This document shows positions 21,288 to 32,531 of a stretch of DNA of 59,725 nucleotides, piece after piece. The notes below the pieces were generated by a model. The model was given only the letters and a program-made list of their open reading frames with translations. It had not been told where the DNA came from and did not search any database. Source of the DNA: an uncultured Campylobacteraceae bacterium (GTDB taxonomy: Bacteria; Campylobacterota; Campylobacteria; Campylobacterales; JALSKU01); the NCBI GenBank assembly GCA_964556545.1, contig CAZKWE010000053.1:1-59725 (forward strand), given 5' to 3'. Made by a program: the position numbers and the translations under genes. Each line of letters starts with the position of its first letter. Within the stretch, counting starts at the first letter, position 1.

Positions 21288-21512
21288 TTACTTTAAAAAT
21301 TCTTTTGTTTTTTTAAGTTTTTGCATTTGAGAAAGTATCTTGTTTTTTTCATTTTTTAAAAGATCATTTGCCTGTTTTATGAGAGCCAGAGCCGTCTGGC
21401 TCTCTTGAAGAGTTTTAAATATCGGAATTTTGTGGCTCAATGCTTCAATTTGTTCAAAATTTTCATTTATAATTGCCAGCTTTAAAGAGTCAATCCAAAT
21501 TTTTTTTTGCAT
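21288..21512 (-). CDS. Small helical protein, FliT-like
   Basis: WIDSLKLAII...helical coiled coil, directly downstream of and overlapping fliS, at the fliT position of the Helicobacter fliD-fliS-fliT order. Confidence 0.55.
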   Translation of the reverse strand: MQKKIWIDSLKLAIINENFEQIEALSHKIPIFKTLQESQTALALIKQANDLLKNEKNKILSQMQKLKKTKEFLK

Positions 21513-21870
21513 TTATCTCTCTCCAGGCTTCTAAAAGTCCTTTTACTACTTTGTTTACGGTTGCTAAATCCTCTATGGAATTTTTTGCATTTGCCAATGA
21601 AAGCAGTTGAATTTGATAAGAGTACAATCCGTTTAAATATTTGGCAACTTCTCCACCGTTAAAATTTAATGAATTGATCAATTCTACAAAGATATCTACC
21701 GATCTGTTAATCCAGTATGATTTTCTTTCATAATTTTTTTGCTCTATGGCTTTTTTTGCCTGAAAATTAAATCTAAGTATTCCTTCATATAACATTTCGA
21801 TTAGTTTTTCTTTTGATTCGATGGATATATTGTTTTGTGTATATTCACTATATGCCAAATTAGTTCTCAT
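21490..21870 (-). CDS. fliS: Flagellin chaperone FliS
   Basis: AYSEY, LIEMLYEGIL, GGEVAKYLNGLY and GLLEAWRE. Confidence 0.96.
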   Translation of the reverse strand: MRTNLAYSEYTQNNISIESKEKLIEMLYEGILRFNFQAKKAIEQKNYERKSYWINRSVDIFVELINSLNFNGGEVAKYLNGLYSYQIQLLSLANAKNSIEDLATVNKVVKGLLEAWREINAKKNLD

Positions 21871-21882
21871 GATTATATCCTT

Positions 21883-23256
21883 TTATTGTTTTGTAGTTAA
21901 GAAATTTTGTATTTGCATCTGCAAAGATTGTGACTGTGCATTGAATGTTGAAATGATATTGTCATATGCTGCAAATTTTTTTGCCAATATATTGTATTTG
22001 TTTTCAATTTGTTTTGTCTGTTTGTCTTTTTGTTCCTCAAGATTTTTTAAATTTTCGTCAAGATATGTCTTATACAGTTTTATTTCACTGTTTTGGTCCA
22101 TAAAGATTGATTCTAATTTATCGTTTAAGTTTGCAAAAAGTCCTTTTTCCGGGTGTGTGTCGGTTTCTCCTTTGAAAAAATCCCTAACACTATTCGGATC
22201 AGTTTGTATTTTATTCTCAAGTACCGATTCGTCAAGTTCTAAATGCCCTGTACTGTTTTGTGTAATACCAAAATCAGCCAAAGATTTATTTGAACTGTCA
22301 AAACTAAATATGGTATTGTTTATATCGTATTTTATGCCTCTAATTTGACTTACACCTTGAAAAATACCCTGTTCTTTTGTCTTAATGTCATATTTTGTAG
22401 CTGCATCAAGGTTATCTACAAGGTTATTGTAGGCTGAAATAAAAGATTTTACCGTATCTTTTAAAGTATCCGTATCTTGTGATATTTTTATAGTGGTTTT
22501 TCCCGTATCGATCAGTTTTATTTCAACTCCCGCAACCAAATCATTTATATCGTTTGTACTTCTTGTGATATTGACACCGTTAAAAGTAAAATTTGCATCT
22601 TGTGCACCGTTGCCAACAGTTGTCAAAGACAAATCATCAGCTGCCGTACCGCCACCTGTTGAACTGATGGTTATAGCATTATCGGCTCCTGTTTCTGCAG
22701 ATTTGATAATCAACTTATACGGATCATCACCACCTACATTTAAGATAGAAGCAGTTATTTTACCGTTAGAGTTCTCATTTATTAATTGTTTTAATTGAGA
22801 AATAGTAGTGTTTTGATCTACTGAAATGCTAAAATTATCACCATTTGCCAATTCAAATTTAAGTGTATCGGCTCCGTCTGTAAAAGTACTTGTCTCTTGA
22901 TTGAAAGATTTTGACTCTTTTATATCATTTGTTGCTATATTTGTTATATCAAGATTGATAGACTGAGAAGGGGTGCCGTCTACAACTGTAGCAGTTGCCG
23001 AACTTCCGGTTATATCAGTAGAAACTTTCGAGTAAATACTATCATATGACAAAGTACTTGCACTACCTTTTAGAGTAGCTAAGAGTGTAGTCAAGTTTGC
23101 TAAAGAATCTTCTCTTTTTTTATCAAGTGAAATTTTTTTATCAAGCGGTTTTATAAGAGCATCTTGATCGGCTTTTTTCAACTTATCTATAATATCATAA
23201 CTAAGAGCTCCCTGACTACCGAGTCCCAAACTGCTTAAAGCACCAAAATCACCCAT
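21883..23256 (-). CDS. fliD: Flagellar filament cap FliD
   Basis: LSSLGLGS..LSYDIIDKLK N-terminus, AQDANFTFNGV..TRSTN and C-terminal KFAAYD helix. Confidence 0.95.
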   Translation of the reverse strand: MGDFGALSSLGLGSQGALSYDIIDKLKKADQDALIKPLDKKISLDKKREDSLANLTTLLATLKGSASTLSYDSIYSKVSTDITGSSATATVVDGTPSQSINLDITNIATNDIKESKSFNQETSTFTDGADTLKFELANGDNFSISVDQNTTISQLKQLINENSNGKITASILNVGGDDPYKLIIKSAETGADNAITISSTGGGTAADDLSLTTVGNGAQDANFTFNGVNITRSTNDINDLVAGVEIKLIDTGKTTIKISQDTDTLKDTVKSFISAYNNLVDNLDAATKYDIKTKEQGIFQGVSQIRGIKYDINNTIFSFDSSNKSLADFGITQNSTGHLELDESVLENKIQTDPNSVRDFFKGETDTHPEKGLFANLNDKLESIFMDQNSEIKLYKTYLDENLKNLEEQKDKQTKQIENKYNILAKKFAAYDNIISTFNAQSQSLQMQIQNFLTTKQ

Positions 23257-23259
23257 AAA

Positions 23260-23640
23260 TTATCCTTTTTTATCAAAAATCATACCTATGATTTCTTTCA
23301 TTTTTTCAGCTAATTTCATTGTCTCTTCAGAAGGAATTTTTCTGATGAGTTTACCTGTATTTTTCTCTGTTACATCAACAAACATAGTATCAATTTTGTC
23401 ATTAAAGCCAAATTTTATATTGATATTTAGTGAATCCATTTGGTCATTCAATCTTTTGACCGTATTGTTTAAATGTTGTTGAATATCTTTTTTATCCCGT
23501 TTGTTTTTTATCTCACTGCTTGTAGTGGTTGTATTTTGCTGGATTTGCTGTTTTTTTTGCAAATCAGATGTTTTAGCATGATCAGCATTGTAACTCGTTG
23601 TAGAGTCTATTTGCTTGCTTACGACATTAAATATATCCAT
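23260..23640 (-). CDS. flaG: Flagellar protein FlaG
   Basis: LNDQM..NINIKFGF..VDVTE..TGKLIRKIPSEE and GMIFDKKG C-terminus. The start may be GTG 23643. Confidence 0.93.
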   Translation of the reverse strand: MDIFNVVSKQIDSTTSYNADHAKTSDLQKKQQIQQNTTTTSSEIKNKRDKKDIQQHLNNTVKRLNDQMDSLNINIKFGFNDKIDTMFVDVTEKNTGKLIRKIPSEETMKLAEKMKEIIGMIFDKKG

Positions 23641-23676
23641 CACTTAACTCCTTTTGCTTTTGATTGCTTATCTCTA

Positions 23677-23746: not shown

Positions 23747-24109
23747 TTGAAGATATCTATAATGTGTGATTCTTTGCTGTTGCAAAACAGTTTGGAAATT
23801 TTTTTAAGAGAGTATTTATCATCATACAAACAGTGTGAACTGGTGCTTAGTGATAAAAAGAGAGATTTGCAAAAACCCGTTATTGTTATAAATTCATCAA
23901 ATGACTCAGATATCAAAATACCATTTTCCAAATCATCATTGCTATTGGGGCTTCAAGAACTTTATAGATTAAAATATCCGGCAAAAGATAATAAAAATAA
24001 AAATATAAAAAAAGACAAACTTTGGAAATTGGAAAGAAAGATAGACAAATTGACACTTCAGTTTAGAGAAAATCTTATACAAACCATCAGGGATTTTTAT
24101 GAGGAATAA
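23747..24109 (+). CDS. Conserved Campylobacterota hypothetical protein upstream of rsmD
   Basis: 120-aa ORF, C-terminal coiled coil, overlaps the rsmD start. Confidence 0.75.
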   Translation: MKISIMCDSLLLQNSLEIFLREYLSSYKQCELVLSDKKRDLQKPVIVINSSNDSDIKIPFSKSSLLLGLQELYRLKYPAKDNKNKNIKKDKLWKLERKIDKLTLQFRENLIQTIRDFYEE

Positions 24110-24674
24110 ACTTTTTACAGCTATTAGCGGTGGAAAATACAAAGGTAAAAAATTATTGCTTCCTCCTTTATCATCAACAAGAAGCACAAAATCAATCATT
24201 AAAGAATCGTTTTTTAATACTGTGCAGTTTGAAATAATACAAAAAAATTTTATAGAACTGTTTGCAGGCAGTGGATCGATGGGACTTGAAGCAATCAGCA
24301 GAGGTGCAAAGAGAGCTTATTTCGTAGAAAAAGACGAAAATGCCTATGAAATACTATTGCAAAATATAGCAAGCTTAAATGTGGAAGATAAGTGCAGTGC
24401 CGTATATGGTAATACTTTTGTAGAATTTTACAATATAATAGAAAATATAGAAGAAAAAAGTTATTTTTATTTTGATCCTCCTTTTGAAATAAGAGATGGC
24501 ATGAATGAAATATATGAAAAATGTTATCAGCTTATAAAAAATATTCCGACTCAAAAATGCGAACTTATAGCCATAGAGCATATGAGCAGTATCGTGCCAC
24601 ATAGAGAAATTGGCAGTTATAAAATGCAAAAAAGTAAAAAATTCGGAAAAACAACAATAAGCTATTATAGATAA
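24099..24674 (+). CDS. rsmD: 16S rRNA m2G966 methyltransferase RsmD
   Basis: ISGGKYKGKKL, FIELFAGSGSMGLEAISRGA, FDPPF and KKFGKT. Confidence 0.93.
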   Translation: MRNKLFTAISGGKYKGKKLLLPPLSSTRSTKSIIKESFFNTVQFEIIQKNFIELFAGSGSMGLEAISRGAKRAYFVEKDENAYEILLQNIASLNVEDKCSAVYGNTFVEFYNIIENIEEKSYFYFDPPFEIRDGMNEIYEKCYQLIKNIPTQKCELIAIEHMSSIVPHREIGSYKMQKSKKFGKTTISYYR

Positions 24675-24730: not shown

Positions 24731-27700
24731 TTATTTGATTGACCAGAATCTTCCTCCTATTGTCTTTTCAATCTCAACTTTTCCATTTTTAACCGAAACT
24801 TCTTCCTGCACAGATGATTTCTCTTCGTGTGTAATGTCATCATCATATATCTCGGCAATTATATTTAGATTATAAGATACTTTGTATTTGCCATTTCCTT
24901 CAGGCTGTATATTTAATCCTGAAATTTTATACTCTATCTCATCAAAAACTCTAAAAGTTCTATTTAGATTATCTTCCAAATCAGATATATCTCCACCGGC
25001 ATATGACCAATCAGGAGAAAGAAAACTAACTACTCTACTCTCATCTTTTGACTCATAAGCCTCTTTAAAAGCTCTGTAAAAATCTTCTATTTTACGCTTG
25101 TCCTCTTCAGATAGACGGGAGGAGAGTCTTATATTTTTATTTATAGTAGGTTTTGCAACGGTTGATTTGCCAATCGAAATAGTAATAGCAGCATGAGTCA
25201 ATTTTGAATTTGCTTCAGGGTGCTGAAACCACACAATCCCTGCTTTGTGCTCCTTGTTGTATAGTTTTTTAATCCCAAATCCAAATTTTTTCAAGAGAGC
25301 TTCCGCCTCTTTTTCAGTTTTTCCGACAACAGATGGTACTTTGTCTAACAATTTATAAACATATAGAGTGACAGTTGATCCGTTTTTTACTTTTGTCTTG
25401 TACGGAGGAACTGTCTTTTGTACCACTCCGTTTAAGGTAGAGAGGGCTGTATGTACATTCACTATCTTATAGTTCAAATTCTTTACATATTTTTTAAGCA
25501 AATCTATAGCTTTGCTTTTTGATATGCCAGTCAATTTTGGCACGGTTACAAGATTTGAATACTTATATACCGTGATATTTACTGTTGAATTTGGTTTTGC
25601 TTCTACCCCGGATTTTGGAGTTTGGGATTTGACTTTGTTATTTAAATTTTTATTGTCTGTTATATAGTATGTCACTCTCTCTTTAAAACCGTTTTTTCGG
25701 ATGATTTTTATGGCCGTATCTTTACTAATTGCAACAACAGAAGGCACCAAAGAGTGCAGAGAATAAACCGAAAATGTAACTATCGAACCCCTCTTGACGA
25801 TAGTTCCCCAAGGAGGAGTTGAGCCTGGTTTAATCTTTCCGTTTAAGCTTGAAAATTTTGTACTCTCGTAGATAACTTTTGGTATGAGACCGGCATCTTT
25901 TATCTTTTTAATGGTTGCATCAACTGTTGTTGCAAGTGCCGGAACTTTGACTATATCTGATTTTGTGGGTGGATTTTTTTTGACATTTTCCGGTAGTTTT
26001 TGATTTGGTTTCAATTTAACAGTTAAAAATATCGTACTGTCATATCCATACTGACATCTGCTACCTCCTCTAGGAGATGTTGCTATCACGGTTCCAGCCG
26101 GTAAAGATGTGACATGTTTAACATACGACGAAGCCTCGCTTTCAAATCGTATATCTCTAAATCCTTTCTTTACTAAAATACTCTTTGCAATCTCAGGAGT
26201 AGCACCTAATACACTTGGCATTATCGGCATCTCTTGAGCATTTATGTCTGCTACAAGCAGTGTCATTCTCTCTGATTTACTTCTCACAACACCTATGGCA
26301 GGATCATCCATCTGCCCCAACACATCCAATACAGTTCCATCAATTGCACCTATCTTTTTCTCTTTTTTGACCGTAACATTTGTAAAGCCCAATTCTTTCA
26401 TCTCTTTTCTGGCATCTTTTATGGTTTTTCCACGAATATCAGGAGGTACGATGGCTTCATCCGATCTCATTTTTGGTATATAGACTTTTTTTCGGCAAAA
26501 AAGCTTGACTGTTTGAAATGTTTTGATCTTGCTTCCCCAAGCAGGATCTGATCGAACAAGTATATTTCCCTCTTTATATGATCTGTTTTCTACCTTCTCT
26601 GTTTTAAAATAGACCTTTCCTAATCTTGCTTTTAGTTTTTCAATATCTTTGTTTATGCCATCGCACTTTCTATTTTCCCAGTTTGGCAATATAGTCTCTT
26701 TTAGTTTTATCGTCGCTATCTTTACTTCAGAACCAGGAGCTATACAACTTATCTTCTCATCAAGAACTTTACCCTCTGCTATCTTATAAACAGATTTGTG
26801 ATTTTTTATATAATTCAATACATCCACATAGACAACTTTTGGTTTAAAACCGGCTCTCTTTAGTTTTGTGAGAGCATTGTTTATATCTTGATTTTTAACA
26901 TTTGGAGGATAGATACATTTTATAAGTTTGTAAACTTTTACATGTACTTTGGTAGGTCGAAACAGTATAGTTCCCGCTTTGACATCTTGATAATAAATTT
27001 TACCATCAAGTTTTCTGTTTTTTGCATTTTCTGCTATCTTTTTATAGGTTGGAGTTATGATGAGATATCTGTTTTGCTTAGCCTTTTGTAAACTCCACCC
27101 CTTGGTTAAATCAGGCATTTTAATCTTTGGAAAAGCATAAATCTGCACACCTATATATCTTGGTTTTTTGATTAAAGAGCCAGCCTTTATGCTTTGAGAA
27201 AATATCTTTCCATAGAGTTTAGGATTGGTTGTTTTTTTATATATATCTTGAATATATCCTATGGGAAGTTTGTATTTTTTTATCTTCGCCTTCGCTTCTT
27301 CTAATGTTAGCCCTTTAAGGTTTACCATTTTTTTTATCGGACCGGCATATTTATAAACATATAGTGTCAAAAGCACATTTCCATTTGCATCATACAAAGT
27401 GCTGCCACTTGAAGCATAACTTCTGTTTTTGCTTGGACCTTGCACCCATACTCTTTTTGTTTTTGAGCCAGAAAAAGAGGGAACAGTAATAGTTTCATAA
27501 TGCCCGTAAGAACTATCGTGTGTACTGCCTCCAGCAGAAGCAGGTGAACCTTTTGCAACGATAGTTTGTCCAGGATTTATGCTTTGTTTATAGATTCTGT
27601 TATATTTATCTGATGTAGTTGGAGTGTATAAAATCTTCAATGATATATTGGAATTTTTTAACTCTTTTTTTACTTCATCTATCCCTTTGCCTATAAAATC

Positions 27701-27961
27701 TTTCATGCGAAAGCTGTTGTACCAAACCGCATATACAACTCTATTTGAGATATGTATCTCATCTATCTTGTCAAATTGTGATATGTTTCTTGCGGGTCGA
27801 TATCTAAATCTAACACGAAAATGCATCTGATTCGCTTTGTTTATCAACTCTCGACCGCTTTTAAGGCTACCAAAAGGATTATATGCTGCCAAACTGTTTG
27901 TCGTTATCACCAATAGCAAAGCGATCATTGCCAACCATATGTGCTTAATTAAAATTTTCAT
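24731..27961 (-). CDS. Secreted poly-PASTA protein (~11-12 repeats) with C-terminal NTF2-like domain
   Basis: Sec signal peptide (ITTNSLA|A). Repeated ~65-70-aa units such as VPSVVGKTEKEAEALLKKFGF...GIVWFQHPEANSKL...ITISIG and VPKLTGISKSKAIDLL...GVVQKTVPPYKTKVKNGSTVTLYVY. Final ~125 aa has a helix-helix-beta-sheet NTF2/SnoaL pattern. AGGA RBS upstream. Confidence 0.85.
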   Translation of the reverse strand: MKILIKHIWLAMIALLLVITTNSLAAYNPFGSLKSGRELINKANQMHFRVRFRYRPARNISQFDKIDEIHISNRVVYAVWYNSFRMKDFIGKGIDEVKKELKNSNISLKILYTPTTSDKYNRIYKQSINPGQTIVAKGSPASAGGSTHDSSYGHYETITVPSFSGSKTKRVWVQGPSKNRSYASSGSTLYDANGNVLLTLYVYKYAGPIKKMVNLKGLTLEEAKAKIKKYKLPIGYIQDIYKKTTNPKLYGKIFSQSIKAGSLIKKPRYIGVQIYAFPKIKMPDLTKGWSLQKAKQNRYLIITPTYKKIAENAKNRKLDGKIYYQDVKAGTILFRPTKVHVKVYKLIKCIYPPNVKNQDINNALTKLKRAGFKPKVVYVDVLNYIKNHKSVYKIAEGKVLDEKISCIAPGSEVKIATIKLKETILPNWENRKCDGINKDIEKLKARLGKVYFKTEKVENRSYKEGNILVRSDPAWGSKIKTFQTVKLFCRKKVYIPKMRSDEAIVPPDIRGKTIKDARKEMKELGFTNVTVKKEKKIGAIDGTVLDVLGQMDDPAIGVVRSKSERMTLLVADINAQEMPIMPSVLGATPEIAKSILVKKGFRDIRFESEASSYVKHVTSLPAGTVIATSPRGGSRCQYGYDSTIFLTVKLKPNQKLPENVKKNPPTKSDIVKVPALATTVDATIKKIKDAGLIPKVIYESTKFSSLNGKIKPGSTPPWGTIVKRGSIVTFSVYSLHSLVPSVVAISKDTAIKIIRKNGFKERVTYYITDNKNLNNKVKSQTPKSGVEAKPNSTVNITVYKYSNLVTVPKLTGISKSKAIDLLKKYVKNLNYKIVNVHTALSTLNGVVQKTVPPYKTKVKNGSTVTLYVYKLLDKVPSVVGKTEKEAEALLKKFGFGIKKLYNKEHKAGIVWFQHPEANSKLTHAAITISIGKSTVAKPTINKNIRLSSRLSEEDKRKIEDFYRAFKEAYESKDESRVVSFLSPDWSYAGGDISDLEDNLNRTFRVFDEIEYKISGLNIQPEGNGKYKVSYNLNIIAEIYDDDITHEEKSSVQEEVSVKNGKVEIEKTIGGRFWSIK
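25167..27715 (-). repeat. Array of 11 diverged PASTA-domain repeats (plus one degenerate unit at ~27716-27886)
   Basis: Each unit shows [VM]P-x-[LV]-x-G-x-[ST]-x-x-x-A, then (G)-x-[VI]-x-x-[QT]-x-P-x-x-G, then a terminal [VI]-x-[LIF]-x-[VI]-Y strand. I saw no long DNA-level identity between units. Confidence 0.8.
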
Positions 27962-27996
27962 CTATGATTCCTGTAAATATATTGAGTAAATGGGTT

Positions 27997-29349
27997 TTAA
28001 AAATCCAAACCCCCATCAGAACGATATTTATAATCACATGTTACACTAGTATGTAGTCCCCCTGAAGTATCCGTGGTTGTAGTGCTACTAATATTTTTTA
28101 CTATGGCATAGGTATTGTTTGGTAATTTTACGGCATACACATGATCGTCATTATTTGTTGCTGCCACAGGTTGGGTGTCATAACCGGTTGTAGGAACACT
28201 CATATGGCTAAAATTTACATTCCCTGATCCATCAACTCCCAAATCTTGAATTTGGGCTCCAGAGTCCGGCCAAAAAACATTTCCTTCCAAAAAGATATCA
28301 GATGTTCCCATATCAAAATTTGAAATATCTACGATAGTTCCGCTATCAAATATAAATCCTTTATGTTGATTTCCTCCACTTGGTAAATCATCATATGATA
28401 AAGTGAATGAGCCACTTTCTATGTTATCATCTCCACTGTTTGTCGTATTGTTTATTATGTCAGCTATACTTTTTTCACTTATATCTCCAGAATTATTAAC
28501 TGTTATAAGTTTTTCATTGGAAACAGATACGACTGAACCATCAGCTACTTCTTGTGCATCACTTAATCCAAAAATAAGAGGATTTTTCATACTATATAAC
28601 ATAGCACCATATTTGCCATCTATAAAACTAAATTCCGTTATACCTTTGTCGCTATAAACCTTTCCATCTTTTGAAGATTCTAATGTCCTGTTAAAACTAA
28701 TACTTACAAGATATTTTCCACCTTGATAAGCTATAGAATTAATGGTAAAATCTATTTGTATATTGTCAAAAACATTAAAATCTTTTCTCAAAGCCAATTC
28801 AAGAGTTGTATCATCCCCGGTAAAATCTTCACTAACATATCTCATAAAACCGGATAAATCTTCATTGGAGTATGAAGTCTTTAAGTGATCAAGAGTGTTT
28901 CTGACTATTTCTTTGTAATTTTTGTTTATTATAGTAATAATTTTATGTGTATCTTCTAAGTCATTAGTTTTGCCAGTTGTGTCAATTATTTGGATATATA
29001 TATTGTATTTTTTGTCAATCTTCGGTTCAAATGAAAAATCAAAAGCACCATCCCTTGTTAATTTTGCTTTTTTCCATGTCTTTTTGCCATCTAATGTAAT
29101 AAGCACTCTTGCTATATTGGAATTTCCTGCATTTGCTTTTCCTCGTATATGAAGATATCCGTTGTCCAAAGAATCTTTTGAAAAGACAATCTCTTTTTTT
29201 GTCGAATCAAAAGATAGAGAGTTGATATATAGATAATTGATATTGACACTACTCTCGTTATGTCCAAAAATCCACCATTTTGCATTTGCATTAGTAAATA
29301 CAAGAAATAACAATAACGGAAATAATAATATTTTAAATCTATTTTTCAT
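27997..29349 (-). CDS. Secreted three-domain protein: Ig-like + NTF2-like + HmuY-like C-terminal domain
   Basis: Signal peptide (FTNANA|KWWIFG). Ig-like segment IRGKA..RVLITLDGKKTWKKAKL..FDFSF..IIDTTGK. NTF2-like middle domain. C-terminus HVYAVKLPNNTYAIVK...VTCDYKYRSDGGLDF. AAGGAG RBS overlapping the upstream stop. Confidence 0.75.
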   Translation of the reverse strand: MKNRFKILLFPLLLFLVFTNANAKWWIFGHNESSVNINYLYINSLSFDSTKKEIVFSKDSLDNGYLHIRGKANAGNSNIARVLITLDGKKTWKKAKLTRDGAFDFSFEPKIDKKYNIYIQIIDTTGKTNDLEDTHKIITIINKNYKEIVRNTLDHLKTSYSNEDLSGFMRYVSEDFTGDDTTLELALRKDFNVFDNIQIDFTINSIAYQGGKYLVSISFNRTLESSKDGKVYSDKGITEFSFIDGKYGAMLYSMKNPLIFGLSDAQEVADGSVVSVSNEKLITVNNSGDISEKSIADIINNTTNSGDDNIESGSFTLSYDDLPSGGNQHKGFIFDSGTIVDISNFDMGTSDIFLEGNVFWPDSGAQIQDLGVDGSGNVNFSHMSVPTTGYDTQPVAATNNDDHVYAVKLPNNTYAIVKNISSTTTTDTSGGLHTSVTCDYKYRSDGGLDF

Positions 29350-29359
29350 TTTAAACTCC

Positions 29360-30964
29360 TTAAAATCTTATCCTAACACCTAAAATGGTGCCCCTCTCTC
29401 TAAAATTTTTTGTATTTGTCGTATATGTGAAATCATTGTAAAATGCTCTAGCATAGATCATAACTCTCTTAAATGAGAAAAATATTTTAGGTCTGTAATA
29501 AATATTAAGGTTCAAAAAAACTTTTTTGCTATCGTCGCTTAGATCTCTATCGGATTTATTTTCTCCAATCTTTAATTTACCGGATAATCTATATTTCATA
29601 ACATCCACACCTAAACCAATCGATGCCTCATAATATTTATCAAGAGAACTCTTTAATTCATCTTTGTTAGATCGAGAACCTATATATAAAGAGGGCTTAA
29701 AAATATAATCTTTCTTTCTAATTTTACCGTTAAATTGTGTATTAATCCTGAATTCATGACTATCTTGAATATTTCCATCTGTTTTATAGCTATAATATGA
29801 AATATTTGTTGTATTGTAAATTTTTGCAAATCTGTCACTCATAGAAAAGTCTATGATATGATTTGTTATATTATTTGTGGTATCTGTTATATCTAACTTA
29901 TAGGTTAGATCAATAGTATTATGTCTTCTACCAAAAGCTTTTTTGTATGTTATTCCGATACTGGGTCTATACACATCTTTTCTATCGATTAATTGTCCGT
30001 CCAAGTCATTTCTATACCATAAAAAACCTATATGTGTTACAATCTTTTTTGTAGCTTTATATCTCCAAGAAGTTTTAAACTTTTCTCTATCCGGAGTTGC
30101 CGAACCTGTTAATGTAATATAATAAGGTGAAACTCTTTCATACTCCACCAAAACTCTACTTGGATTTTTATTTCCGATTGCTCTTATTTTAAAAGCATTG
30201 CCGCTAAAATTTTCATTTGCAGTTGTATCAGAAGTATTTTTCGTGTTATTTGAATGGGAAAATTCACTATAAATATCTAAGTCCGGTATGGGTATATAAT
30301 TTATATCCATAGTATATAGATGATTATTGTATAACGGAACACCTCCAAATATTCTATCTTTATCGTTAGAATAGACAAAACTTACACCTATATCCATTTT
30401 GCCATCCAAAATTTTCCTTCTGTACCTAGTTCCATAGACACTTCTTTTTATTGCTTTTGTTTTGTTGTCCCAAAAGCTATCCCATCTTGGATATGCTATA
30501 CCATAAACTATTTGTAGTTGATTTGTAATGTCTTTACTAAGATATCTATAGGATACACCCTTTAAAGCTGTATTTAAAGAGTATTGAGAAAAAGATTCAA
30601 ATACATCTCCAACTCTAAATGTATTTATTTTATTTTTAAGGGTAATTTGCATATTTGTAATAGAAATATCTTTAGGATCCTTTTTTCTATTATCTGTTGC
30701 CTTTAAACCTAAATTTATAATATATTTATATTTTTTAAGTTTACCTTTTTTGTAATAATTAAAAATATTGAAATATCTTAATCCATCCACAAGAGAAGAG
30801 TTTTTTTTGCCGGGACCGGTTATATCATTGTATTGAAGATAAAAATCATTCTTGATGGCAACTTTATCTAAATCTGAAGAAAATAATGTTAAACTTATAG
30901 GGAATATAGCTACGAAAAAAGAAAATAAAAACTTTCTATAAGATAAAAAAGATAAAAATTTCAT
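29360..30964 (-). CDS. Outer-membrane beta-barrel protein of unknown family
   Basis: Signal peptide, then alternating aromatic/hydrophobic strands along the whole chain, and a C-terminal Phe (GVRIRF) typical of BAM substrates. ATG 30964 has an AAGG RBS; the ORF extends to TTG 30982. Confidence 0.8.
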   Translation of the reverse strand: MKFLSFLSYRKFLFSFFVAIFPISLTLFSSDLDKVAIKNDFYLQYNDITGPGKKNSSLVDGLRYFNIFNYYKKGKLKKYKYIINLGLKATDNRKKDPKDISITNMQITLKNKINTFRVGDVFESFSQYSLNTALKGVSYRYLSKDITNQLQIVYGIAYPRWDSFWDNKTKAIKRSVYGTRYRRKILDGKMDIGVSFVYSNDKDRIFGGVPLYNNHLYTMDINYIPIPDLDIYSEFSHSNNTKNTSDTTANENFSGNAFKIRAIGNKNPSRVLVEYERVSPYYITLTGSATPDREKFKTSWRYKATKKIVTHIGFLWYRNDLDGQLIDRKDVYRPSIGITYKKAFGRRHNTIDLTYKLDITDTTNNITNHIIDFSMSDRFAKIYNTTNISYYSYKTDGNIQDSHEFRINTQFNGKIRKKDYIFKPSLYIGSRSNKDELKSSLDKYYEASIGLGVDVMKYRLSGKLKIGENKSDRDLSDDSKKVFLNLNIYYRPKIFFSFKRVMIYARAFYNDFTYTTNTKNFRERGTILGVRIRF

Positions 30965-31076
30965 AATCAAACCTTTTTGCAAAGTTAAAAAAACATAATA
31001 TAGAATCTATATCATAAATAAGATTCAGCTCTTTGTTTTAACTTAATTATTAAAATTAAATTTTTTTACTAAGTTA

Positions 31077-31128: not shown

Positions 31129-31163
31129 GAACGGATTTTGCTTTATTGGAACGGATTTTGCTT
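31129..31163 (+). repeat. Tandem direct repeat GAACGGATTTTGCTT x2 (15 bp, 20-bp period)
   Basis: Exact copies at 31129-31143 and 31149-31163. Confidence 0.95.
31146..31163 (+). promoter_or_regulatory. sigma54 (RpoN) promoter for the flgI operon
   Basis: TTGGAACGGATTTTGCTT: GG(31148-9)-N10-GC(31160-1), 40 nt upstream of the flgI TTG. Confidence 0.88.
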
Positions 31164-31200
31164 CAATATAGTATCAAGATATCGTTTCAAGGAAAAATTA

Positions 31201-32250
31201 TTGAAAAAGATCATTTTATTTTTAACCGTTTTATTCGTTTTGTTGCAGGCTGAAAAAATTCAAAATCTTGTAAATGTTGTGGGCGTAAGAAACAATCAAG
31301 TTATAGGATATGGTCTTGTAGTAGGATTAAACGGTACCGGTGACGGTACAACATCCGCTTTTACGGTAAGATCTCTTTCAAATCTTCTTCAAACGGTAAA
31401 TGTAAAAATAGATCCGAAAGATATCAAATCAAAAAATATAGCCGCAGTTATAGTAACCGCAAAACTTCCTCCTTTTGCAAGACAAGGAGATAAACTCGAT
31501 GTTACGGTATCATCTATAGGCGATGCAAAATCCATAGAAGGCGGAACTCTTTTGATAACTCCGCTTAAAGGCGTAGATGGTAAAATATATGCTTTGGCCC
31601 AAGGTTCACTTAGCATAGGCGGAAAAAACGGCAGAGGAAGAGGAGAGTTAAATCATCCTACAGCAGGAACTATACTTAATGGTGCCTTGGTTGAAAGGAA
31701 TGTTGCATATGATATATATGATAAAAAGTATTTAAAACTTTCTTTAAAAAATTCCAGCTTTCAAACCGCTATGCAGATAGAAAAGTCACTTAATGCTATA
31801 TTTGATGAAAAAGTAGCTGTTGCAATTGATCCAAAAACAATCAACTTAAAAAAACCGGATGATATGAGTGTGATATCATTTATGGCCAAGATTTTAAATG
31901 CGGATATATCTTACAAGCCGGATGAAAAGATAGTCATAGACGAAAGAACAGGTACCATAGTTGCGGGGGTAGGTATAAAAATAGATCCTGTGGTTATAAC
32001 ACATAAGAATATAACTATTAAAATAGAACCTGTAAAAAAAATTATAGATAACAACAGCAGTATAAAAATAGGAAACAAAGTTGCGATCAATACAAAAGAT
32101 TTTGCTTTAAATATGGAAAAAAACAGTGTTACCATATCTAATTTAACCAGAGCATTACAAAAACTCGGAGCAAAACCTAAAGATATCATCTCTATCATAG
32201 AGAGTATCAAAAAAGCAGGTGCTATACGAGCAGATGTGGAGATAATATGA
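31201..32250 (+). CDS. flgI: Flagellar P-ring protein FlgI (TTG start)
   Basis: GVRNNQVIGYGLVVGLNGTGD, AAVIVTAKLPPF, SSIGDAKSIEGGTLL and IVIDERTGTIV. AAGGA RBS at 31189-31193. Confidence 0.98.
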   Translation: MKKIILFLTVLFVLLQAEKIQNLVNVVGVRNNQVIGYGLVVGLNGTGDGTTSAFTVRSLSNLLQTVNVKIDPKDIKSKNIAAVIVTAKLPPFARQGDKLDVTVSSIGDAKSIEGGTLLITPLKGVDGKIYALAQGSLSIGGKNGRGRGELNHPTAGTILNGALVERNVAYDIYDKKYLKLSLKNSSFQTAMQIEKSLNAIFDEKVAVAIDPKTINLKKPDDMSVISFMAKILNADISYKPDEKIVIDERTGTIVAGVGIKIDPVVITHKNITIKIEPVKKIIDNNSSIKIGNKVAINTKDFALNMEKNSVTISNLTRALQKLGAKPKDIISIIESIKKAGAIRADVEII

Positions 32251-32531
32251 TCAAGATAGACAATTATGTGGCTTTAACTGATGCAAACAGTATGCCAAGA
32301 ATTATCAAAAGCGATAATGATACAAAATTAAGAGAACAAACAGATAAATTTGAAGCATTTTTTATCAAAAAGGTTTTGGATATTTCTATAAAAACAGATA
32401 ATGCACTTTTTCCAAAAGGTGCAGGTGATGAGATATACAGATCAATGTATAATGATGCAATGAGTGATAAATTGAGCGGAAGATTTGGCTTTAGTGAATT
32501 ATTGTTTAATTATTTGAAACAAAAAGGTTAA
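32247..32531 (+). CDS. flgJ: Short FlgJ-type rod-binding protein (no muramidase domain)
   Basis: LREQTDKFEAFFIKKVL and EIYRSMYND..S..GFSELLFNYL. Confidence 0.85.
   Translation: MIKIDNYVALTDANSMPRIIKSDNDTKLREQTDKFEAFFIKKVLDISIKTDNALFPKGAGDEIYRSMYNDAMSDKLSGRFGFSELLFNYLKQKG

Follow-up and report, generated by a model that had tools for sequence, protein, structure and literature searches.

Paralogous NTF2-like domains in the adaptor and client of an unannotated outer-membrane barrel gene triad: a possible docking module

A 59,725-nucleotide stretch of DNA from an uncultured Campylobacteraceae bacterium (NCBI GenBank assembly GCA_964556545.1, contig CAZKWE010000053.1; G+C content about 31%), referred to here as the window, contains three genes arranged head to tail on the minus strand (the triad). 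The first encodes a predicted 26-strand outer-membrane β-barrel, the second a 450-residue protein that we call the adaptor and the third a 1076-residue protein with PASTA repeats that we call the client. On the basis of sequence comparison, the C-terminal domain (CTD) of the client and a domain in the middle of the adaptor are true paralogues. Our preferred reading, to which we give slightly less than an even chance, is that barrel, adaptor and client form a conserved outer-membrane system of three components, in which this shared domain acts as the common docking module.

An earlier note on this DNA had aligned the two domains by eye and quoted a peptide from each; both peptides are present in the translations where it had placed them. 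Pairwise alignment bears out the resemblance: when the full-length proteins are compared by BLASTP, a single high-scoring segment pair is significant (30% identity, E = 4e-5 for a single comparison), and it pairs client residues 922–1033 with adaptor residues 134–220. At the level of families, a profile of 148 CTDs collected by an exhaustive HMMER search was compared using hhalign with a profile of 120 middle domains taken from homologues of the 450-residue protein (probability 97.1%, E = 5.1e-11, 85 columns), and a second hhalign comparison on independent alignments gave 95.9% (E = 5.1e-9). Moreover, the hidden Markov models (HMMs) of the two types detect each other's domains, both in the window and in nine of the ten comparison loci, with E values from 1e-7 to 2e-3; in the tenth (L010) there is no cross-match between the domain types below 0.01. 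Since BLASTP, the profile–profile scores and the cross-detecting HMMs agree, the two domains are best described as paralogues, as the earlier note had proposed. One could argue for a chance or compositional similarity without common origin, given that the pairwise identity is only 30%, that the aligned segment is about 90 residues long and that the proteome is AT-rich and abundant in Lys, Asp, Glu and Ser, but this explanation is refuted by profile–profile E values of 5e-9 to 5e-11 and by reciprocal HMM matches in the window and in nine of ten loci belonging to different phyla. The two types can be aligned over their three helices and on through the second or third strand, with shared motifs in helix 1 (‘..AY.s.d’) and in helices 2–3 (‘vS.DF/W.GD...L...l.r.F..FD.I’). 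The C-terminal thirds are specific to each type, with ‘HEEKSSV...GGRFW’ in the CTD type and ‘...MKNPLIFGL’ in the middle type. An HMM search of the whole window finds two copies of the domain only, namely these.

The earlier note had also assigned both domains an NTF2-like fold. This holds directly for the middle domain. The AlphaFold2 (AF2) model of the adaptor, built with 112 homologues, has a mean predicted local distance difference test score (pLDDT) of 87.9, and the blocks of the middle domain score between 88 and 97. DSSP assigns to this domain three helices (residues 145–161, 165–169 and 180–193) and four long strands (194–209, 212–225, 231–245 and 248–254), and Foldseek against the PDB aligns it with entries 3hx8, 3rob and 5ien (target-normalised template-modelling (TM) scores of 0.72–0.76, root-mean-square deviations (rmsd) of 2.5–3.3 Å). 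As modelled, the middle domain is thus an NTF2-like cone, in which three N-terminal helices pack on a curved antiparallel sheet, and SnoaL_2 of Pfam is matched by 18 of the 112 members of the adaptor family. For the CTD the evidence is indirect, and an NTF2-like fold is made probable by its homology with the middle domain (over the helices and first strands) and by recurrent sub-threshold Pfam matches: among 27 CTDs, the only families matched repeatedly belong to the NTF2 clan (DUF4440 in six, best E = 6.8e-6; SnoaL_3 in six; NTF2_YvbJ in four; MecA_N and Cds6_C are further matches from this clan). The CTD of the window has sub-threshold matches to NTF2_YvbJ, DUF4440 and TcaA_5th, and the CTD profile gives weak matches in the PDB to the NTF2 domain of RsgI9, the N-terminal domains of PBP5 and PBP2a, and 3hx8. 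Both domains of the window score below the Pfam cut-offs (at best 16.4 bits for NTF2_YvbJ with a cut-off of 25, and 14.5 bits for SnoaL_2 with a cut-off of 27) and neither has an NTF2 match in NCBIfam; both types are thus families not yet filed, since no curated cut-off of Pfam or NCBIfam is reached. A likeness to the periplasmic scaffold VirB8, which the earlier note had mentioned, is not upheld: there is no VirB8 match in Pfam at E ≤ 10 nor among the 50 Foldseek matches listed, the proteins have predicted cleavable signal peptides rather than anchors, and the loci inspected do not contain type IV secretion system genes.

The best structural and the best sub-threshold sequence matches are NTF2-like domains of the cell envelope, although the domains of the window have no family-level membership among them. 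The accessory domains of Pgp2/Csd6/Bd1075, RsgI9, PBP2a/PBP5 (MecA_N) and YvbJ/TcaA are, like those described here, extracytoplasmic, non-catalytic and attached to other modules. Yet in no case is the domain confined to the C-terminus as a tag for interchangeable bodies, or tied to a dedicated barrel and a partner bearing a paralogue. The NTF2 domains of Pgp2 (PDB entry 6xj6, E = 3e-6), Bd1075 (PDB entry 7o21) and RsgI9 are among the top Foldseek matches of the adaptor model, and the NTF2 pocket of Pgp2 (Tyr233, Phe242, Lys257, Lys307 and Glu324), which is joined to an LD-carboxypeptidase domain, binds peptidoglycan (PMC8038945). We may therefore wonder whether the two domains, without touching each other or the barrel, bind the same ligand independently, most likely peptidoglycan but possibly a lipid or another hydrophobic molecule as in many NTF2-clan proteins; they would then belong to a transport device or to a periplasmic structure that connects the outer membrane with the cell wall. 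The weak matches of the CTD profile to the N-terminal NTF2-like domains of PBP5 and PBP2a fit this explanation, and the motif common to the paralogues (AY..., D[FW].GD, L..A.RKDF..FD.I) could line a shared pocket. The client of the window is, in addition, built of repeats of PASTA, a peptidoglycan- or β-lactam-binding module. However, the Pgp2 and Bd1075 alignments are long, with an rmsd of 12–14 Å, and it is generic proteins of the ketosteroid-isomerase-like kind that give the clean NTF2 matches; most clients do not have a cell-wall-binding domain; and a common ligand leaves unexplained both the strict C-terminal position on unrelated bodies and the tie to one barrel family. We consider a shared ligand unlikely. 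No LD-carboxypeptidase (YkuD) domain was found by Pfam in the triad proteins.

The CTD is found far beyond the window. Exhaustive search yields 374 representative clusters at E ≤ 1e-3, and in all of the 150 matches listed the aligned CTD reaches to the C-terminus of its protein or stops a few residues short of it (a word-indexed homologue search with the CTD alone gave 10 candidates and one match). The 96 full-length CTD proteins fall into 15 body groups that are not connected by BLAST; the bodies of the clients, 900–1400 residues long, thus belong to at least 15 unrelated groups. The CTD of the window is 41–48% identical to the C-termini of clients from Geobacter, Nitrospirae, Desulfobacula and Sulfurospirillum, the bodies of which cannot be aligned. 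In nearly all of 38 clients sampled across all body groups, the N-terminus carries a hydrophobic signal segment; signal peptides were assigned by visual inspection and from hydrophobicity. Pfam recognises PASTA in three of these 38, TPR in two, PKD in one and nothing in most, while PDB and NCBIfam searches with client bodies returned only noise. The large clients at the loci fetched through the adaptor or the barrel are non-PASTA proteins, long, mostly helical and Cys-poor, without Pfam domains, and the Cys content of client bodies lies between 0 and 0.9%. In the window itself, the PASTA assignment of the client is solid (Pfam PF03793, E = 7.4e-69, 228 bits with a cut-off of 23.2, in 10 stretches; 11 repeats by local iterative search), and no kinase or transpeptidase domain accompanies the repeats: the NCBIfam model NF033483 (cut-off 450) reaches 221.9, on the PASTA part only. 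PASTA bodies occur in nine of the 96 proteins, so the repeats are not a feature of the system but one body type among at least 15. Some clients carry more than one copy of the domain: P0127 (1720 residues) ends in three tandem CTD-type domains (residues 1311–1428, 1452–1569 and 1590–1716), the penultimate of which (about 1458–1570) is the only CTD-type copy to exceed a Pfam cut-off (SnoaL_3, DUF4440), and P0179 ends in two. It should also be noted that several helical clients have a Gly/Ala-rich hydrophobic segment 100–220 residues from the N-terminus (about 170–215 in Dsb_1078, 150–220 in L7_1096 and 178–215 in P0211), reminiscent of the membrane-insertion hairpins of α-pore-forming toxins; the PASTA client does not have it.

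The three genes also travel together. Barrel, adaptor and CTD genes are adjacent in 10 of 10 loci fetched through the adaptor or the barrel, as in the window; together, these loci represent Campylobacterota, Geobacter, Desulfobacula, Nitrospirae and Elusimicrobiales, so that the gene set is present in no fewer than four named phyla. In each locus fetched the barrel–adaptor pair is flanked, before or after, by one to three very large genes, and the genes flanking the triad vary from locus to locus. Homologues of the adaptor and barrel come from Campylobacterota, Geobacter sulfurreducens, Desulfobacula, Syntrophus, Syntrophorhabdaceae, Nitrospirae, Thermodesulfobacteriota and Elusimicrobiota, a taxonomy read from record names for a minority of the matches. 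A search of metagenome contigs using the CTD only, and therefore free of any bias for the barrel, gave 49 loci. Among the 23 loci of at least 13 kb, to which the tally was restricted, a barrel is present in 21 and a middle-type gene in 22; one of the two loci without a barrel is interrupted by a contig end. A pattern scan of a genome collection gave one locus, the patterns being over-specific. Seven loci (L004, L006, L013, L015, L020, L031 and L044) contain two to three tandem CTD genes each, which suggests that one barrel serves several clients.

Taken together, the CTD is portable and conserved, sits at the C-terminus of interchangeable bodies with predicted Sec-dependent export, and keeps company with a single barrel family and with a protein bearing its paralogue; these are the marks expected of a domain for docking, sorting or anchoring. 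The earlier note had proposed a coupling or assembly module, and the part of this idea that stands comes from comparative genomics, that is, from the C-terminal position on unrelated bodies and the linkage with the barrel and the middle-type protein across phyla.

Some of these loci show variations on the arrangement. In the closest relative, a Campylobacterales metagenome-assembled genome (MAG; L004, 8402–9990), the barrel is split into open reading frames (ORFs) of 213 and 314 residues in different frames, through a frameshift or an assembly error, and the locus has two clients (1137 and 988 residues) followed by a 530-residue ORF. In Desulfobacula (L006, 9381–10556), a 391-residue TPR protein, which may be an accessory component, lies between the adaptor and two tandem clients. 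Two loci (L007, 1097–5839; L009, 3620–8846) have a second adaptor-like gene (400–414 residues, with another C-terminal domain) together with its own client upstream of the barrel, so that one barrel gene may serve two adaptor–client pairs. In the Geobacter locus, a GerE/LuxR-type regulator gene lies immediately upstream; in G. sulfurreducens PCA the adaptor homologue is AAR36045.1, which by our estimate of the locus tags is encoded beside GSU2670, a regulator of this type.

The adaptor is organized as a signal peptide, a KWWIFG motif, an immunoglobulin-like (Ig-like) domain, the NTF2-like domain, a PLIFGL tail, a linker and a C-terminal β-sandwich, and its sequence has no lipobox Cys. Its homologues form 174 clusters, all unnamed or annotated as hypothetical. 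Residues A23, W25, W26, F28 and G29 are invariant in 112 adaptor sequences, and the KWWIFG segment, with a mean column conservation of 0.82, has a pLDDT below 50 in the monomer model, as would fit a segment that becomes ordered only on a partner. The Ig-like domain is matched in Foldseek by the dimerisation domain of sulfite oxidase and SorT, and Big_13 of Pfam is found in 93 of 112 family members. The MKNPLIFGL tail (28564–28590 in the window; conservation 0.84) directly follows the NTF2-like domain. It resembles the KWWIFG motif, and both flank folded domains; the two may be candidate docking strands for the barrel. The β-sandwich is the least conserved part of the protein (0.41), although its final Phe is nearly invariant, and has weak matches only (fimbrial BcfE, E = 0.003; AlcCBM31, HmuY and H_lectin). 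We also considered a ‘WIFG’-like motif common to adaptor and clients, having seen it in clients of Geobacter and Nitrospirae; it occurs in two of 96 clients, no more often than in shuffled sequences, and was discarded.

The AF2 model of the barrel (112 homologues; pLDDT 94.6, predicted TM score 0.84) is all-β from residue 40 to the C-terminal Phe (539). After a signal peptide, 26 strands can be counted in the DSSP string of the model, and the sequence ends in ...GVRIRF. The model contains neither a plug nor a periplasmic domain, and loops on both faces are at most 16 residues long. When the strand residues are separated by parity, lumen-facing polar positions are more conserved than lipid-facing positions (0.69 versus 0.56, p = 3.5e-7), and the lumen is charged as well as conserved. 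In Foldseek the best TM score (0.56) is to the 26-strand MtrB and the best E values are to the 24-strand FimD/PapC, all at 8–10% identity; the sequence has no match in Pfam, NCBIfam or a PDB profile search, and its homologues (192 clusters) are all unnamed or hypothetical. PF21620 is a precomputed flag on five barrel homologues that could not be reproduced at E ≤ 10 in the four rescanned, and it was not used. To our knowledge, every characterised barrel of comparable size (LptD, MtrB and the ushers) has its lumen occupied, by a plug domain or by a partner protein such as LptE or MtrA. The present barrel probably also has a protein partner, seated in it or upon it, since an empty barrel of this size would breach the permeability barrier.

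In our preferred reading, the docking module, the adaptor would occupy or close the otherwise open barrel, perhaps making contact through its near-invariant KWWIFG and MKNPLIFGL motifs. NTF2-like domains commonly dimerise, and the CTD of the client would pair with the paralogous NTF2-like domain of the adaptor. This pairing would recruit the client to the barrel, leading to its export to the cell surface or its anchoring there. Stand-alone middle-type proteins encoded beside CTD genes (see below) are as expected if the middle type is the binding partner of the CTD. The adaptor–barrel complex, the pairing of CTD and adaptor, and the direction and final location of the client are steps that we infer, and we favour surface exposure over a periplasmic housekeeping role because the client bodies are extremely diverse and tandemly multiplied. 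A precedent for pairing of the middle type, stand-alone proteins included, with the CTD type is found in NXF1/TAP–NXT1/p15 and Mex67–Mtr2. In each of these, one partner is large and multidomain, and its NTF2-like domain joins with a small protein of the same fold; they are, however, nuclear export factors of eukaryotes, unrelated in sequence to the triad, in which pairing is hypothesised.

Several observations weigh against a docking module of this kind. Middle-type and CTD-type genes do not occur in a fixed ratio (1:2, 2:1, 3:2). In the loci with two adaptor–client pairs (L007 and L009), no pattern of subfamily-specific pairing is seen. Charge complementarity between the two types was considered and rejected, both being mostly acidic. 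A simple 1:1 heterodimer does not explain the three tandem CTD-type domains of P0127. PASTA and TPR bodies would suit the periplasm equally well, which weakens the case for export to the surface. Finally, one locus (L045, 7079–10387) has an orphan CTD gene with no barrel or adaptor within 7–10 kb; its genome looks G+C-rich, and it is the only clear exception to the linkage.

The variable gene ratio would be easier to understand if each domain bound the barrel independently. The CTD might then be read by the barrel itself, as in the recognition tag suggested in the earlier note, CTD and middle domain being alternative occupants of one site in or on it (as plug, stopper or anchor) and their paralogy reflecting a common binding site instead of heterodimerisation. 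An NTF2-like cone of about 120 residues is about the size of the plug in comparable barrels, such as LptE in LptD; the lumen is conserved and charged, as noted above; the barrel is as conserved as the CTD (mean column identity 47% and 53%, respectively); and the linkage data fit this explanation as well as they fit docking on the adaptor. On the other hand, the triple CTDs of P0127 and the two to three clients per barrel gene could not share one lumen at once. The adaptor is, moreover, invariably present, its NTF2-like domain is flanked by two near-invariant motifs, and these linear motifs look like the real barrel contacts. Direct reading by the barrel is in our opinion the main rival, a serious possibility but less likely than docking through the adaptor.

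Small secreted stand-alone proteins of the middle type (158–200 residues) are frequent in the comparison loci. Their genes usually directly follow a CTD gene, often overlapping it, and precede it in some loci; the proteins retain the second adaptor motif (...PLLFGLN, ...LLIFGVSGQ), and the Geobacter protein has a possible lipobox (LLSC / LPAC). This arrangement, with small NTF2-like genes overlapping or directly following CTD genes in many loci, brings to mind toxins or effectors encoded with their protection: the clients would be the toxins, and the middle-type NTF2 proteins, especially the small ones, their immunity proteins or chaperones. NTF2-like immunity proteins do exist, and the client bodies are hypervariable, some with Gly-rich hydrophobic segments near residues 100–220. 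Polymorphic toxins, however, pair a variable part with a variable immunity protein; the small proteins at these loci are, by contrast, conserved, and their likeness is to the paralogue of the conserved CTD rather than to the variable body; Pfam finds no toxin domain in 38 clients; and an HMM search finds no small stand-alone NTF2 gene in the window. We regard a toxin–immunity relationship as very improbable.

Known outer-membrane systems resemble the triad in parts. With LptD–LptE, MtrCAB and FimD/PapC it shares barrel size (24–26 strands), adjacent partner genes and a wide barrel in need of a protein filler. A usher is a 24-strand barrel with a plug, N- and C-terminal domains and a PapD-like chaperone; the triad has no Usher or PapD match in Pfam, its barrel has no plug, N- or C-terminal domain, and the adaptor match to BcfE is weak, so we rejected a chaperone–usher assignment. 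LptD/LptE was rejected as well (no Pfam or NCBIfam match, no LptD jellyroll, no LptD among the 50 Foldseek matches listed, and an adaptor with no Cys for lipidation), as was MtrB/PioB, where the TM score of 0.56 comes with 8% identity and no Pfam match, and where the triad partners are Cys-poor and have no haem-binding domains. The type IX secretion system (T9SS) offers a likeness of another kind, a conserved C-terminal domain of about 100 residues on diverse Sec-exported cargo, for passage or attachment at a giant outer-membrane barrel. Its CTD is nevertheless an Ig-like β-sandwich, and its 36-strand SprA works with PorV and many other components, all of them absent here, whereas the triad has an NTF2-like CTD, 26 strands and three conserved gene types. 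The T9SS is, moreover, machinery of the Bacteroidota type, and the hosts named for the triad are Campylobacterota, Desulfobacterota, Nitrospirae and Elusimicrobiota; the client has no match to the T9SS sorting domains of NCBIfam and was not retained as type IX cargo. Two-partner secretion (TPS) likewise places a dedicated barrel gene beside large variable secreted proteins with one conserved recognition domain. That domain, however, is an N-terminal β-helix, read by a 16-strand Omp85 barrel (TpsB) with POTRA domains, whereas the tag of the triad is C-terminal and NTF2-like. TPS was also rejected, with no Pfam match to TPS/haemagglutination, POTRA or ShlB-type families and a barrel of 26 strands with no periplasmic domain. 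All components of the triad are annotated as hypothetical or unnamed and have no curated family, and we found no description of the triad in the literature on NTF2 with barrels or secretion, Gram-negative PASTA proteins, 26-strand barrels or GSU2668–2677. Because the defining features of the families compared fail and neither a curated family nor a published description was found, we place the triad outside the known kinds; its function is what we infer from the comparisons above.

Table 1. Coordinates of the triad and related features (window positions unless a comparison locus is named).
Feature	Position	Strand	Details
Barrel gene	29360..30964	(-)	534 residues counted from ATG; mechanical ORF start is TTG at 30982 (540 residues)
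450-residue adaptor	27997..29349	(-)	Start 10 nucleotides past the barrel stop codon
Predicted mature adaptor N-terminus ‘KWWIFGHNES’	29251..29280	(-)	Residues 24-33, nearly invariant in the family
Adaptor Ig-like (E-set) domain	28927..29244	(-)	Residues 36-141; Pfam Mo-co_dimer E=8.7e-5
Middle-type NTF2-like domain	28564..28917	(-)	Adaptor residues 145-254 and conserved tail ‘MKNPLIFGL’ (254-262); residues 144-263 correspond to 28561-28920
Adaptor C-terminal β-sandwich	28000..28422	(-)	Residues 310-450; AF2 strands 310-443
1076-residue client	24731..27961	(-)	Start 35 nucleotides past the adaptor stop codon; signal peptide, about 11 PASTA-like repeats, linker, CTD
PASTA repeat body	25166..27700	(-)	Client residues 88-932
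CTD-type NTF2-like domain	24734..25114	(-)	Client residues 950-1076, the last ~127 residues; ends ...THEEKSSVQEEV...GGRFWSIK
Stand-alone NTF2 genes	L001:7490-7966, L003:13486-13995, L007:7574-8056, L017:8929-9486, L037:10347-10907		Many loci in L011-L059

The closest relatives of the triad proteins are found in a Campylobacterales MAG, Sulfuricurvum and Sulfurospirillum. From their translations, the neighbours of the triad in the window read as flagellar genes: fliS, fliD and flaG downstream (21490–23643), and flgI and a flgJ-like gene for a rod-binding protein upstream (31138–32531). A flagellar connection was considered but set aside: the setting is probably coincidental, since the arrangement is not conserved in other genomes, each of the other loci having different genes around the triad. 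An ORF of 120 residues with a TTG start (23747–24109, plus strand) overlaps the start of a gene read as an rsmD-like methyltransferase (24099–24674). A promoter and terminator scan of the operon gave counts no different from those of shuffled sequences in this AT-rich DNA. The sole PADLOC matches are PASTA-kinase models, and as these are confined to the PASTA repeats they do not support a reading as a defence system.

Taking the docking module one step further, the triad could be an unrecognised and widespread outer-membrane export or surface-display system of mostly anaerobic diderms (Campylobacterota, Desulfobacterota including G. sulfurreducens, Nitrospirae and Elusimicrobiota), with the NTF2-like CTD as a sorting or anchoring signal that is read by the adaptor paralogue gating a 26-strand translocon. 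We put this forward tentatively, as a possibility that is far from assured. If true, just three genes would make up an outer-membrane system whose sorting or docking signal is of a new kind, namely an NTF2-like CTD recognised through its own paralogue, and which would serve hundreds of very large, fast-diverging and unannotated secreted proteins. It would account for a group of ‘hypothetical’ genes that recurs among anaerobes of environmental importance and would define a new class of 26-strand barrel complexes beside LptDE, MtrCAB and perhaps GfcD, and the CTD would become a sequence handle for finding clients in any genome. Since G. sulfurreducens PCA, which is genetically tractable, carries the system, these ideas are directly testable. 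The PASTA module is normally associated with Gram-positive cell-wall sensing; in the bacterium of the window, an 11-repeat PASTA protein would then be delivered to, or held at, a Campylobacterota-like outer membrane.

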